Part shown: positions 40,697 to 45,099 of the stretch, piece after piece
How positions within the stretch are numbered: position 1 is the stretch's first letter
Layout: each line of letters starts with the position of its first letter
Assembly (NCBI GenBank): GCA_039028495.1
Contig: JBCCHY010000003.1
Location: 1-49,839 of the forward strand
Length of the DNA: 49,839 nucleotides
Origin: Patescibacteria group bacterium
GTDB taxonomy: Bacteria; Patescibacteriota; Saccharimonadia; Saccharimonadales; VXPC01
Direction of reading: 5' to 3'
The notes under the pieces: generated by a model
What the model saw: the letters and a program-made list of their open reading frames with translations, nothing else
What the model was told of the DNA's origin: nothing
Databases searched by the model: none
Translations under genes and position numbers: made by a program

Positions 40697-41929
40697 ATGT
40701 ATGATGGTGAGACACTACCTGTTTTAGTTAAAGATCAGGCAATACCTGGGCTTTCTCATGTTATAGCCTTACATGTAGAAGTGGCCGATATGCGCCAGCG
40801 TGTTGAGAATATTGATACTCAGCGAGCACATGAGGTAAAACTTGGTGAAAGAATCCATGATGCAAGGAGGGAAGCCATACTCACCAGTGCCTTATTGAGC
40901 GATATACTTGGTCTTACCGTAAGTCCTGATGATGAAGAGCCTGATACAGATACTAACGACACTACCGATTCCCGTATTGTCAATAGACCTCCAACTGTTG
41001 ATCAGATTACGGAATCTGCTTTCTTTTTTAGGGCACCCAGACGAGGCGTGCACGCTTTGCAGAGAAGAAACTTGATTAATGATGCTCTGCTTGATGCCGC
41101 AGCGAACAGAGGTCTCAGGAAGAGAGCCTGGCAATCAGCACATCCTGACACTAATGAAGGCGCAAAAGTAGAAAAAACAGCAAAGGCCATAGGTGCATCT
41201 GACCGTGACCCTAAAACGGCTATACTGACAATGTTATCAGCCGGGGTGAAACCTACCGACGAGATGAACCTCACTGAGTTACGTGACGAGCGGTACCTAC
41301 TTCAGCTTTATCTTGACTCTACGGACGTGAATTATCGTAGTAAGCGTGAGGCGACTACTGCCGCTAAAAGAGAGGTAGACATGGCCGGATGGCGTGTTCG
41401 CTCAGAAGCCGCAGGACATCTGTTAGGCTTACTTGTCGGTAGCGATGAAGAAGTGAGGGAGTTTGCTGAGAGTAATCTAAGATATAACGATGTTTATTCG
41501 ATAGAGAGATTTAACTCTGACATAGTCAAAATATGGACTCTATTAGAACGTATTAAGCTTGGAAACCCAAGAGAAGCCAAGCGCTACGACGAGGCAAAAG
41601 TAGACGAGATATTGGAACATATCTGGGAAGTACATGCACCAAGCGATAAAAGAAGAGTCTCTAGCCCACCACATACGAACTGGCTACCAATACTTATTGA
41701 TGCTTTAGAGCTCATGGACCCAGGTGAGTCCGAGGGCGTCAGATACACTTACTTTGAACCACCAATTAAGCTTACAAGAGTGCCTCAACCAACTAGATTA
41801 CCAAGCAGGAATACTGAGCGAGGTTACCCATACGACAAAGATCACTACTGCAAAGATAGTCAAGAGACTGATTCAAACATAATTTATAGCAACAAAAACG
41901 ACAAGTACGAGGAATACTACAATACATGA
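40697..41929 (+). CDS. Hypothetical protein
   Basis: 410-aa ORF; extended -10 (TGtTATAAT) 7 nt before the ATG. Confidence 0.7.
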   Translation: MYDGETLPVLVKDQAIPGLSHVIALHVEVADMRQRVENIDTQRAHEVKLGERIHDARREAILTSALLSDILGLTVSPDDEEPDTDTNDTTDSRIVNRPPTVDQITESAFFFRAPRRGVHALQRRNLINDALLDAAANRGLRKRAWQSAHPDTNEGAKVEKTAKAIGASDRDPKTAILTMLSAGVKPTDEMNLTELRDERYLLQLYLDSTDVNYRSKREATTAAKREVDMAGWRVRSEAAGHLLGLLVGSDEEVREFAESNLRYNDVYSIERFNSDIVKIWTLLERIKLGNPREAKRYDEAKVDEILEHIWEVHAPSDKRRVSSPPHTNWLPILIDALELMDPGESEGVRYTYFEPPIKLTRVPQPTRLPSRNTERGYPYDKDHYCKDSQETDSNIIYSNKNDKYEEYYNT

Positions 41930-42585
41930 GTTACGAAATTGGCAGAGTTCAGTCTGAGTTTCTGACGAACTATCAGATACGTGCTTGCCACAAACTTGCA
42001 ATCAATGCTTTGGCCGAAAAACTCTCTGAGCGCAGGACTAGAGCAGAAGTAGAGGCCTTTGTAGGCCCACTCGGGACATACATGCTACGTACTCGTAACC
42101 CTAACCGGGCTGTAGGTAGACGTTATCGAAGTGGACAAGTATTCTTTAATGTACGAACTGTACTCACCACAGACACCAATAATCGTGTTATTGGGTGCCT
42201 GCATAGCGCTAGTAATGTCTCTGGTAGTCCTATTGAGCGTAAAGCAAAGCTGTCCACAAGACCCGATAAGATTTACCACTGGGTTTCAGGGATATCAGTG
42301 GATCCTTCACACTGGGGGCAAGGTATAGCTACAAGGATGATGCTAAAGTCACTAGAAGGCGTAGATGACCGTAGAAGTGTTACTGCATACCCTTCACCAT
42401 CAGAAGATCCTGAGTTTGTACATAAACTGATAAGCTTAGGTTTTGTAGTGCCTGAACCAGCATACGGTGTAGCTGATCTGTACGGGCCAGGTAGTGAGCC
42501 AGCTACACAGATTAGATTAGTCGCACCTGTCCCAGAACTTAGAGCAAACCTCGAAGCACGCTCTAGATTTGGGCACAATCCATAA
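41926..42585 (+). CDS. GNAT family acetyltransferase
   Basis: ISVDPSHWGQGIATRM (acetyl-CoA motif A) and LGF near the C-terminus. Confidence 0.75.
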   Translation: MSYEIGRVQSEFLTNYQIRACHKLAINALAEKLSERRTRAEVEAFVGPLGTYMLRTRNPNRAVGRRYRSGQVFFNVRTVLTTDTNNRVIGCLHSASNVSGSPIERKAKLSTRPDKIYHWVSGISVDPSHWGQGIATRMMLKSLEGVDDRRSVTAYPSPSEDPEFVHKLISLGFVVPEPAYGVADLYGPGSEPATQIRLVAPVPELRANLEARSRFGHNP

Positions 42586-42604
42586 GTTTTAGAATTTTAT
42601 ATAT

Positions 42605-43210
42605 ATGTATTATCATGTAGCTATGATCAGCACACATAGAGCACTGACTGAATTGCATCATGCTCTGGCCGCAAAAAGAGATATAGCTCGTGAAGCCGGT
42701 ATTACAAAAGGAAGCAGCAGTCGTGAAGCTGCAGTGGTTGTTGAGGGTGGAGGACGCTCACTACTTGACCCTGCCATCTTAGGTGCTACGAGGCTAATAG
42801 TTAGGTCATTCGCAAAGGCATCATTCCACGATACGTACTGGATTAGTATGCGACTATATGATGATGAAAGAGAGTTAGACATAGCCCCAGATCAGTATGC
42901 TCTTGATGGAGACCCTAAGTCTGGAGAATACTTTATGTTTACCACCGGATCGGCCTTGCCACGAATAGCTAGAGCAGACCTACCTGCAGCTCTAGCATTG
43001 CGGGCCAAGTGGCTCGAAGAAAATACACTAGAAAGAAATAGATACGATACTCTCGGGAACCTAGTTCATGCCTCCCAGGACGAACTTATATTGGCACCTG
43101 AGGTTAGCGAGTCAAACGGTCTTCAGATTGTTCGTTCAATTGCGGCTATTCCCTTAGACAACTTATGCATTAAACGCCATATACCTGAAACGCTCTACGG
43201 CAACCTGTGA
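42605..43210 (+). CDS. Hypothetical protein
   Basis: 201-aa ORF; start may be ATG 42623. Confidence 0.6.
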   Translation: MYYHVAMISTHRALTELHHALAAKRDIAREAGITKGSSSREAAVVVEGGGRSLLDPAILGATRLIVRSFAKASFHDTYWISMRLYDDERELDIAPDQYALDGDPKSGEYFMFTTGSALPRIARADLPAALALRAKWLEENTLERNRYDTLGNLVHASQDELILAPEVSESNGLQIVRSIAAIPLDNLCIKRHIPETLYGNL

Positions 43211-43271
43211 CAATATCACATAAGAGCTGTTAGCTCATCAGACAGTATCCTCGCTTTTACTTTAATAATTC

Positions 43272-43299
43272 TTGACTTCCGTTCTTTGCCTGTTATCAT
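43272..43299 (+). promoter_or_regulatory. Promoter of the trpS leader
   Basis: TTGACT-16 nt-TATCAT with TGn extension; leader ATG 8 nt downstream. Confidence 0.7.
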
Positions 43300-43307
43300 T
43301 ATTGTCA

Positions 43308-43391
43308 ATGAAAATTCTACAGAACAGCTATCTCTGGCTGCTACTCACTTCACGACCTGTGGCGGCTTATTCTGTTTGCTTTAAAAACTAA
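43308..43391 (+). CDS. Putative Trp leader peptide MKILQNSYLWLLLTSRPVAAYSVCFKN
   Basis: 27 codons, single TGG at 43335-43337; contains the antiterminator arm TGTGGCGG (43358-43365). Confidence 0.65.
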   Translation: MKILQNSYLWLLLTSRPVAAYSVCFKN

Positions 43392-43413
43392 CTAGAACTA
43401 AAACACATTGACT

Positions 43414-43441
43414 AATCCGCCACACTAAGGCGGATTTTTTT
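43414..43441 (+). terminator. Attenuator terminator upstream of GNAT-trpS
   Basis: AATCCGCC-ACACTAA-GGCGGATT followed by a T run. Confidence 0.85.
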
Positions 43442-43462
43442 AATACTACAAGGAGAAATAAC

Positions 43463-44072
43463 ATGAAATATCAAATAATGAACAAACAACCTGATCTAGC
43501 AGAAGCAGCAAAGGTTGTTGCACAGGCAATGCCAGGCCTAGAACCAGATGGGGTAGTCGCTGATACGGCGGCGCACATTAACGGTAACTTTATTCAGTCA
43601 ATACATTCTAATAGCGGCTTAGTGGGATTTGCAAATTACGAAGTAACGGAGTGTTTTTGGCGATAGACTACTATACCTAGCGGGGAGAGCAGTATTACCC
43701 AGACACCAAGGCAAGGGGTTGGGCACTAAAGCTTTAAAGAATGCTATAAATGAAATAGCACCGGACTACCTATTCACCGTCAGCAGAAACCCATCGATAG
43801 TCAAGATGATGTTGAAAGCTTCAGGTGCATCTCTAAGTCATCTATACCCAATTGCATCGACAATTGAACACAGAGTTATAGACTTTTGTGCAAGAGGTGC
43901 TGGCGTACCACATTCTACTAGACCATATCATTTCAACAGGTACGGTGAGAGCGGCTTACAAGGTGATTCTCTACCCATGAGCGACGATCCAAACCTAGCT
44001 CCCTATTTTTCTAACGCCACATTAAAGTCGACTGGCATATTAATGATAATCAAGTGTAGCGAAAGGTGTTAA
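43463..44072 (+). CDS. GNAT-family acetyltransferase split by a +1 frameshift (programmed frameshift or pseudogene)
   Basis: AAGGAG SD; frame 0 ends ...TGT TTT TGG CGA TAG (43666); the +1 frame from 43659 reads GDRLLYLAGRAVLPRHQGKGLGTKAL (motif A) to TAA 44072. Confidence 0.7.
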
Positions 44073-44073
44073 A

Positions 44074-45099
44074 ATGATAGCAATGAATGACACAATACTA
44101 ACAGGTTTACAGCTCACAGGTAGTCTACATCTAGGTAACTATCTTGGCGCTGTCTTGCCCATGGTTGACATCCAAAAGGCTGGCCATACAGTCTATATGT
44201 ACGTTCCAGATATACATGGTTTGACAGCTGATGTAGACTACTCATCTTTCTACGAGAGGACTGTCGAGTTTTTACGTTTGTACGCAGCCGCAGGCTTAGA
44301 TCTGACAAGCGATGACCTAATCCCGTTTAGGGGTAGCCATGTGCCAGCACATTCAGAGCTTGCATGGATTCTGACCTGCTTTACAGGTATGGGCGAGCTA
44401 GAGAGGATGACACAGTACAAAGACAAGTCATCGAGAGCTAATACCCACATAAGTTCAGGCCTACTAACGTATCCAACGCTTATGGCAGCAGATATACTCC
44501 TATACGGCGCAAAGTATGTGCCTGTTGGCGAAGATCAGCAGCAGCATCTCGAGCTCACCAGAGTACTAGCTAGGAGGCTAAACAACAGGTTTGGCGAATG
44601 CCTGGTAGAGCCTGCCGACCATGAAGCAAATCTGGCCTTTTTTGAGACGGAGAATGCCGTCCGTATCCGCAGCCTCTCTGACCCGACCTCAAAAATGAGT
44701 AAAAGTGTGTCAGACCCCAAAGGCACTATAGGTCTACTAGATGATCCCGAAGATGCTCGCAAGAAGGTGATGTCTGCGGTTACAGACGATCTAGGTTCGA
44801 TTAGCTTCGACTTCGTAAACCAGCCCGGTATATCTAACTTGATTCAGATCAAAGCGCTGCTAGAGGGCAAAAAAATAGCTGATGTTGCCGCAGAATATGT
44901 TGGCCACACACAGTACGGCCAGTTTAAATCAGATGTAGCCGATGCTGTCGTGGACTTCTTGAGCAACCTACAAGCTGAGTTTGCTAGGATCAACCCTGAC
45001 TCTGTAACTAAAGAACTACATACGGGTGAGGAAAAGGCCAATGCAGCTGCAAACGAGACACTCTACAGGCTACAGCGAGCAATAGGCCTCAGGCAGTAA
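44074..45099 (+). CDS. trpS: Tryptophanyl-tRNA synthetase
   Basis: HLGN (HIGH), YPTLMAADIL, VPVGEDQQQH, KMSKS. Confidence 0.97.
   Translation: MIAMNDTILTGLQLTGSLHLGNYLGAVLPMVDIQKAGHTVYMYVPDIHGLTADVDYSSFYERTVEFLRLYAAAGLDLTSDDLIPFRGSHVPAHSELAWILTCFTGMGELERMTQYKDKSSRANTHISSGLLTYPTLMAADILLYGAKYVPVGEDQQQHLELTRVLARRLNNRFGECLVEPADHEANLAFFETENAVRIRSLSDPTSKMSKSVSDPKGTIGLLDDPEDARKKVMSAVTDDLGSISFDFVNQPGISNLIQIKALLEGKKIADVAAEYVGHTQYGQFKSDVADAVVDFLSNLQAEFARINPDSVTKELHTGEEKANAAANETLYRLQRAIGLRQ

Follow-up and report, generated by a model that had tools for sequence, protein, structure and literature searches.

A conserved candidate +1 frameshift site at a tryptophan codon in a GNAT gene upstream of trpS in Saccharibacteria

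The window analyzed here is a 49,839-nucleotide (nt) stretch of DNA from a Patescibacteria group bacterium (GenBank assembly GCA_039028495.1, contig JBCCHY010000003.1), in which a gene for a GNAT family acetyltransferase, located immediately upstream of trpS, the gene for tryptophanyl-tRNA synthetase (TrpRS), is divided between two overlapping reading frames. Comparison with relatives indicates that the GNAT gene is very probably decoded by a programmed +1 ribosomal frameshift and, provided that the frameshift is real, quite likely that it responds to Trp-tRNA. The best explanation as a whole, a programmed +1 frameshift in the GNAT gene under the control of charged tRNA(Trp), is favored with real reservations; the shift by the ribosome, the Trp-tRNA dependence of its rate and the coupling of downstream genes are all deduced from comparisons of sequence.

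In the mechanism proposed, the ribosome would read 65 frame-zero codons until peptidyl-tRNA occupies the P site on UUU (CUU in most relatives) with UGG in the A site, and a Shine-Dalgarno (SD)-like GGAG located 3–4 nt upstream would pair with the tail of the 16S rRNA, straining the complex. Should Trp-tRNA(Trp) be delayed, the P-site tRNA could re-pair one base forward on UUU, whereupon GGC would be decoded by Gly-tRNA and the full 202-amino-acid (aa) enzyme would be synthesized; if Trp-tRNA arrives first, termination would follow two codons on (two or five in relatives), leaving only a 67-aa fragment. Scarcity of charged tRNA(Trp) would then permit more transcripts to pass an attenuator ahead of the gene and cause more slips at YUU_UGG_C, yielding full-length GNAT protein, and the same control may possibly extend, via overlapping or abutting stop and start codons, to an AstE-like deacylase in relatives and to TrpRS in the window.

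The split gene and its shift site

The gene, its shift site and trpS comprise the following features of the window.

43463 to 43657, forward strand: GNAT gene, zero-frame part (65 codons), from ATG 43463 to the P-site codon TTT 43655–43657; preceded by the SD sequence AAGGAG at 43450–43455
43644 to 43646, forward strand: TAA that shuts the +1 frame, 11 nt 5′ of the heptamer, with no start codon between the two
43648 to 43651, forward strand: SD-like GGAG, candidate slip stimulator, 3 nt before the shift codon
43655 to 43661, forward strand: candidate shift heptamer TTT_TGG_C, with P-site TTT, zero-frame A-site TGG and +1 A-site GGC
43659 to 44072, forward strand: GNAT gene, +1-frame part, 137 codons and TAA, containing motif A and the C-terminal region
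43664 to 43666, forward strand: zero-frame stop TAG, 9 nt after the heptamer start, closing the 67-aa product if no shift occurs
44074 to 45099, forward strand: trpS, tryptophanyl-tRNA synthetase, 341 aa with one Trp (PF00579, E 3.7e-61); SD-like AAGG 7 nt before the ATG

The zero-frame open reading frame (ORF1, 43463–43666, 67 aa) ends in the codons TGT TTT TGG CGA TAG, which include a run of five T residues (T5, 43654–43658) and the sole Trp codon of ORF1 (TGG, 43658–43660). The +1 frame is open from 43647 to the TAA at 44070–44072 and reads RSVFGDRLLYLAGRAVLPRHQGKGLG..., so that TTG 43719, the only start codon listed for the +1-frame ORF in the window, comes after GNAT motif A. The zero-frame part aligns with the N-terminal part of intact homologues, and a single +1 step gives a 202-aa product that contains no Trp. 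An earlier reading of the DNA letters without database searches (the sequence-only reading) had described the end of ORF1, the limits of the +1 frame, the position of motif A ahead of TTG 43719, the Trp-free fusion and the gap of 1 nt between the GNAT stop and the trpS ATG at 44074, and each of these holds on re-reading the sequence.

Residues 49–98 of the fused product match the Pfam GNAT family (PF00583) at 25.9 bits (cut-off 20.7). The match spans the junction at residues 65/66 and is stronger than that of the +1 part alone (21.5 bits), and ORF1 by itself has no match. The score above the curated cut-off, together with motif A (Q/R-x-x-G-x-G/A), present as RHQGKGLG, places the product among the GNATs. 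Its nearest solved structures are RimI-type GNATs (5isv, 2cnm; E 2.4e-4). That alignment crosses the junction and covers 56 profile positions only (55–110); GNAT core strands and motif A align, whereas the C-terminal 100 residues (conserved ...TRNP..., ...YH..RYG..GLYG..DP...) lie outside it and match no named family.

The shift site was compared at 40 split loci, which form 30 clusters at ≤90% aa identity (median pairwise identity 45%, minimum 25%), one representative per cluster being used for the site statistics. The heptamer is CTTTGGC at 37 loci, TTTTGGC at two (the window and L056) and CTTTGGT at one, in the same phase throughout, and genomes G516, G545 and G611 likewise carry CTT_TGG_C. 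YTT_T, as required for P-site re-pairing (CUU or UUU followed by U), is present at all 40 loci, and the zero-frame codon after YTT is TGG in every representative and at every locus. Twenty-nine of the 30 representatives have GGC as +1 codon and one has GGT, where GGC supplies 38% of the Gly codons in the rest of these genes; TTT is used at the site in 30/30, compared with 64% in the rest of them. The first zero-frame stop is found 9 nt from the heptamer start in 10 representatives and 18 nt from it in 20, and the N-terminal ORF starts 66–68 codons upstream of the site in 27.

An SD-like core (GGAG, GAGG, GGGG or AGGA) located 3–4 nt before the P-site codon was detected in 21 of the 30 representatives, the encoded residues differing, where 5000 synonymous shuffles predict 2.8 ± 1.4 (maximum 9) and the frequency at control positions within those ORFs is 2%, statistics which overstate the enrichment because the relatives are not independent. 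CGG is used for 18 of 40 Arg codons in the SD-like region against 11% elsewhere. A CCTCC-bearing motif resembling the 16S 3′ end, a candidate 16S tail, is present in the closed genomes G340 and G335; the motif was not found in G000, the rRNA operon of which is probably not assembled. In G000, ARAGORN detected tRNA-Leu(GAG), and tRNA-Phe was not found among the 32 tRNA genes of this 96%-complete, incomplete assembly.

Transcriptional slippage, or a tRNA that reads four bases, might restore the frame instead of P-site slippage, and the T5 run of the window, as well as a tRNA set examined in G000 only and incomplete there, could be taken in its favor. Such an origin is nevertheless extremely improbable. 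The site is CTTTGG in 37 of the 40 loci, a run too short for polymerase slippage; none of the tRNAs that ARAGORN found in G000 has an odd anticodon loop; and the enrichment of SD-like cores at a spacing like that of prfB points to the ribosome.

Conservation and origin of the break

An exhaustive search of 1.84 billion representative proteins with the fused protein detected 54 relatives, 37 of which were retrieved for comparison; a word-index protein search with the same query gave no match at E ≤0.001. Twenty-one of the 54 are just 94–171 aa long, and their match starts at query residue 60–64, within their own first 15 residues. When 20 C-terminal ORFs were aligned with that of the window an invariant F-G was evident at the start, a pair missing from unsplit relatives. 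Profile searches identified two-part matches in different frames in G000, G366, G340, G335 and G374 among 401 genomes of the class, and in G516, G545 and G611 among 401 genomes of the order; in the family of G516, where six genomes were searched, G516 alone matched. Pattern searches yielded 10 loci in named Saccharibacteria metagenome-assembled genomes (MAGs), nine split and one (L031) intact, and 27 loci in metagenomes, 26 split and the other cut at its start, counts that are biased to split forms given that one of the two search patterns held ‘FG’. One protein encoded in two overlapping frames, zero and then +1, is in this way conserved in homologues at the 40 loci of the 30 clusters and in G516 and G545. 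In assemblies the GNAT gene is called as two ORFs or fragments (67-aa and 141–171-aa proteins), an annotation that needs correcting.

Homopolymers are the classic place for an insertion or deletion, and intact homologues of 203–208 aa are known, so an assembly or sequencing error at T5, or a recent inactivating mutation that made the gene of the window genome a pseudogene, had to be considered. One public run (X1) contains the stretch around the site, and an independently built Logan contig of that run is identical to 43325–43791, gapless and with T5 kept, at a mean word depth of just 3.7 that makes it weak by itself; runs X2 and X3 contained only trpS-like pieces of ∼34 nt from other organisms. 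The break recurs at 40 loci in many assemblies, most of which have CTTTGG and therewith a run of three T residues only, and strains differing at 5–30 of 601 nt retain the site. Neither half is interrupted by a further stop in any representative. The ratio of nonsynonymous to synonymous substitution (dN/dS), for the two pairs with unsaturated dS among nine tried (the other seven were saturated or gave no estimate), was 0.18 and 0.06 for the N-terminal part and 0.15 and 0.13 for the C-terminal part, by which measure both halves are under purifying selection. On these comparative data the matter is settled: neither an assembly error nor a pseudogene accounts for the break, either being barely credible. 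Of the outcomes that would have undone the sequence-only reading, a run of four T residues did not materialize, T5 being kept in the independent contig despite its low depth, and neither did breaks at random sites, YTT_TGG_C occupying the same place in 40/40 split loci and in G516, G545 and G611.

The two ORFs could alternatively represent a truly split gene, whose N-terminal 67 aa and separately translated C-terminal polypeptide assemble, the SD-like element serving re-initiation. Some +1-frame ATG, GTG or TTG is present upstream of the site in 24 of the 30 representatives, and gene callers predict C-terminal ORFs of 141–171 aa. These upstream starts vary, however, from 3 to >100 codons away, and six representatives, the window among them, have no +1-frame start between the upstream stop in that frame and the site and none ahead of the conserved FG...AG segment; the first such start in the window, TTG 43719, falls after motif A. 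Re-initiation would leave the invariant heptamer and its phase unexplained, and the junction is inside the stretch that aligns with RimI (profile positions 55–110). Separate translation is consequently very unlikely, and a programmed +1 shift is preferred.

The heptamer also occurs elsewhere in the gene. In G622, CTT_TGG_C is found 16 alignment columns upstream of the usual place, in the DNA context CTT TGG CAG TGA, where the N-terminal ORF terminates with ...TFYLWQ-stop and ...FGSEVIGFADY follows in the next frame; the same leader precedes this gene, and an AstE-like gene and trpS follow it. P0012, P0057 and P0058, three variants of a 94-aa ORF present on four contigs, cross the usual place in one frame, as does P0009, and at the protein level the four end in ...HQGRSLW plus 8–9 residues. 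Homology of P0014 starts at ...HFGSRAL, which is motif A, 21 residues further on. The codons TCA CTT TGG CAG at motif A would fit both the ends of the P0009/P0012 type and the start of P0014, and these protein fragments suggest a third place for the heptamer, at motif A. That the heptamer has come to lie at two different places by DNA, or three by protein sequence, speaks for the frameshift itself being the trait under selection.

The intact gene L031/L075 (G628), which lies inside a mostly split clade, has TGT CTC GGT GGG where its neighbors have TGT CTT TGG CGG, with GGAA upstream in place of GGAG and a C-terminal extension that holds its only Trp. Judging by these codons, the frameshift appears to have been lost here secondarily, through deletion of a single base.

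Leader, operon and tryptophan

Upstream of the GNAT gene is a leader with the following features.

43272 to 43299, forward strand: putative promoter-like site, TTGACT and TATCAT separated by 16 nt, TG before the −10 box, 10/12 matches
43308 to 43391, forward strand: leader peptide ORF of 27 codons, whose only Trp codon (43335–43337) is codon 10
43358 to 43365, forward strand: antiterminator 5′ arm TGTGGCGG, which pairs with 43417–43424 (CCGCCACA), also the terminator 5′ arm
43414 to 43443, forward strand: intrinsic terminator, an 8-base-pair stem with a 7-nt loop (43414–43436) and a T run; its end lies 20 nt 5′ of the GNAT start

The arrangement corresponds, as far as can be predicted, to a leader-peptide attenuator, with a leader ORF carrying the regulating codon, a terminator and a mutually exclusive antiterminator. 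The sequence-only reading had placed the gene under a Trp attenuator, a proposal supported by the conservation of the leader ORF and the invariance of its TGG, and by compensatory changes in terminator and antiterminator. In 19 of 24 representative split loci an ORF that begins with ATG 133–157 nt upstream of the GNAT start has Trp at codon 10–12. The TGG column is invariant across 26 aligned leaders with a recognizable element, 24 from split and two from intact genes (L077 and L031); left out of this alignment were L035, L038, L062 and L072, in which no leader is recognizable within 200 nt, and L064 and L071, for which too little upstream sequence is available. The same leader is thus found before unshifted GNAT genes also. 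Most leaders carry one Trp codon and a few carry two, and the C-terminus of the peptide is often ...GGLFRVF, mirroring conserved RNA. The loci with the element are the window (43272–43443), L011, L013, L014, L030–L034, L036, L037, L039, L048–L052, L056, L057, L059, L061, L063, L065, L073, L074, L077, L080 and L081. The −10 box of the window ends 8 nt before the leader ATG, and by eye 6–9 nt before it in relatives, so translation of the leader peptide may be almost leaderless.

Of the cells in the alignment of the antiterminator helix 87.6% are paired, compared with 26–56% for slid controls, six of its eight pairs show changes on both sides, and its covariation score was reached by none of 500 shuffles, figures which are biased toward this helix, the structure having been derived from the window's own sequence; RNAalifold independently chooses the same helix. 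The leader of the window folds at −35 kcal/mol (z −5.2), and none of 200 shuffles was as low. No Rfam match to a T-box was detected at E up to 1 in the window at 42900–44300, nor at the gathering score in 17 loci. A sub-threshold Rfam match to the Bacillus small RNA ncr1575 (25.4 against 60 bits, E 0.41), consisting mostly of the terminator, was rejected, which leaves the leader without a matching Rfam family.

The usual gene order downstream of the leader is GNAT, AstE-like deacylase, trpS, with trpS downstream in most loci. In 21 representatives the gene after GNAT encodes an AstE/AspA-family deacylase (PF24827) of 229–241 aa, which lacks Trp in all 21 and whose ATG overlaps the GNAT stop as ATGA in 16. 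The window locus is syntenic (rplM, rpsI, three inserted genes, leader, GNAT, trpS), the deacylase being absent there. The sequence-only reading had joined GNAT directly to trpS, and this adjacency stands for the window, with its gap of 1 nt, and does not extend to the relatives, in which the deacylase intervenes; the direct junction is the exception. G000 has two AstE-family genes elsewhere, a stronger match on C13 and a weaker one on C34, neither in the trpS operon; that on C34 contains Trp and adjoins a different gene. The GNAT and AstE-like pair suggests an N-acyl amino acid chemistry tied to tryptophan supply, and a role of the pair in salvaging or buffering tryptophan is speculation.

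Some further features of these operons were observed. A second in-frame ATG is located at 44083 in trpS, 9 nt downstream of 44074; it would give a length that fits the N-termini of relatives better, yet it is too distant from the SD-like AAGG, and it is uncertain which of the two is the true start. The three genes at 40697–43210, between rpsI and the leader, are inserted relative to relatives and encode proteins of 410 and 201 aa that lack a Pfam match among those families tested and a second GNAT (41926–42585; PF00583, E 1.2e-5). An MDR-NUDIX RNA motif (RF02918, 63.7 bits) is located downstream of the operon in one Saccharibacteria MAG (L030, 5109–5169, reverse strand).

Tryptophan is absent from all 31 fused proteins, and TGG occurs nowhere in the 5975 codons of both halves outside the site. 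In G000, 0.97% of residues are Trp, and among 236 ORFs of 180–260 aa 33 are Trp-free, so a single Trp-free protein is ordinary; its persistence over such divergence is not. More distant GNAT homologues of another order contain 4–9 Trp.

A real programmed +1 shift could nonetheless be constitutive, giving a fixed low ratio of full-length to 67-aa product that is physiologically insensitive to Trp-tRNA, with UGG due simply to the Gly that follows. Such a shift is unlikely, although several observations fit it. The +1 codon is almost always GGC and Gly comes next at all three places of the heptamer, from which UGG follows as the product of CUU or UUU, then U, then GG; the intact homologues, moreover, function in the same operon. 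Constitutive shifting sits less well with the use of one heptamer at two or three separate places when 16 codons beginning with U could follow CUU, with the absence of Trp codons from the rest of the gene, and with a location beside trpS, downstream of a leader whose TGG is invariant. It is, furthermore, established for sites of this kind that slippage competes with A-site decoding, passages of one paper stating that at sites of the release factor 2 (RF2) type the balance is shifted by tRNA supply or amino-acid starvation (PMC2941156). Control by charged tRNA(Trp) is preferred for these reasons. The interpretation given in the sequence-only reading is supported within limits: dependence on Trp-tRNA keeps its conditional standing, and coupling to the shift is not obligatory.

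Relation to known systems and meaning

Known cases of regulation through programmed +1 frameshifting are release factor 2, where RF2 is sensed, and antizyme, where polyamines are sensed, and useful frameshifting driven by amino-acid starvation has long been proposed. Yeast Ty1 and ABP140 undergo +1 frameshifting at CUU_AGG_C. Their site shares with the GNAT site the form CUU_NGG_C, with a Leu codon in the P site, a sense codon of a scarce tRNA in the A site and GGC as the +1 codon; it differs in being eukaryotic, in having no SD stimulator, in a codon that is slow by virtue of a rare tRNA gene rather than charging, and in having no link to an aminoacyl-tRNA synthetase. Hungry-codon frameshifting has reportedly been obtained in laboratory Escherichia coli constructs by Gallant and Lindsley, by Curran and Yarus and by Sipley and Goldman. 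There, as would be the case here, more frameshifting occurs at a codon whose amino acid is in short supply, provided that the tRNA in the P site is able to re-pair; those sites, however, are artificial or adventitious, whereas the GNAT site is conserved in 30 or more lineages.

A close bacterial parallel in form is prfB, for which passages of a survey of frameshifted genes give the +1 consensus CTT_TGA_C with an upstream SD-type stimulator (PMC3711429). The two heptamers differ by one base, and in both a P-site CUU or UUU codon allows re-pairing on UUU, C follows the A-site codon, an SD-like element is found 3–4 nt upstream, and a slow A-site event competes, or would compete, with slippage. 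At prfB the A-site codon is a stop, UGA or rarely UAA, which senses RF2, whereas at the GNAT site it is the sense codon UGG at 40/40 loci and would sense Trp-tRNA(Trp), which makes the latter a variant rather than a member of prfB-type frameshifting. Furthermore, prfB recodes the factor that reads its own codon; here the recoded gene is GNAT, and TrpRS, which makes the ligand, is encoded downstream.

In some Streptomyces, candidate attenuators ahead of trpS and leuS are described in passages of one paper (PMC1262725). Attenuators of that type and of the trp operon resemble the leader described here in carrying the regulatory codon within a short ORF and in having an antiterminator that competes with the terminator, and the operon regulated in the window likewise includes trpS. 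The window leader differs in its single Trp codon (two in a few relatives), in possibly being leaderless, in its occurrence in Saccharibacteria and in being combined with a candidate second, translational checkpoint at a Trp codon in the first gene.

Several observations weigh against control by a Trp-tRNA-dependent shift, in addition to the low depth of the independent contig, the biased search pattern and the overstated shuffle statistics given above. In the unbiased profile searches only 9 of the 23 genomes with a homologue had it split. Intact homologues occupy the same operon behind the same leader (G043/L077, L031), so the shift is not needed for the operon to work. In a tree of 50 proteins, which left out L048 and L074 (incomplete), L079 (identical to L037), within-cluster duplicates and P0013 (identical to L031), split and intact forms are interleaved, with 6–7 changes by parsimony; the split forms fall into two well-supported clades, and at least three changes are forced by well-supported branches. 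A clear SD-like core is lacking in 9 of the 30 representatives and at the alternative site of G622. UGG may be partly a by-product, because a slip from CUU to UUU needs U and a Gly codon GGN next to it makes UGG in the zero frame. The prfB gene is a single open frame, unshifted, in G000 (C18, 4135–5178; L040) and in G340, G335, G366, G374 and G023 (L042–L046), all of which except G023 carry the prfB-like cassette in the GNAT gene; the mechanism is therefore without internal precedent in these organisms. Finally, 21 of 22 downstream starts have an SD-like core of their own, which weakens obligatory coupling to the shift, and translation of the downstream genes is at most possibly coupled to it.

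For trans-frame proteins made at hungry codons specifically on starvation, ‘no examples are known’ according to a 2016 review (PMC5009743). In the full-text literature neither a UGG frameshift nor CUU_UGG was found described, nor was any frameshifting in Saccharibacteria or the Candidate Phyla Radiation, and CTTTGG does not appear in the main text of the GeneTack survey, whose supplementary cluster lists might bear on novelty (PMC3711429). That the site is the first natural hungry-codon signal, at which the ribosome itself would gauge charged tRNA(Trp), forming with the leader a two-checkpoint sensor that would limit the Trp-free acetyltransferase and deacylase, and perhaps extra TrpRS, to tryptophan starvation in Saccharibacteria, which depend on amino acids, is only marginally favored.

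The locus is a conserved and directly testable candidate, with a cassette of only ∼20 nt. If the proposed mechanism is true, it would constitute a new control route for an aminoacyl-tRNA synthetase operon and a second layer of control beneath a classical attenuator in the Candidate Phyla Radiation, and the acetyltransferase and deacylase pair would be part of the response of these episymbionts to a shortage of tryptophan.

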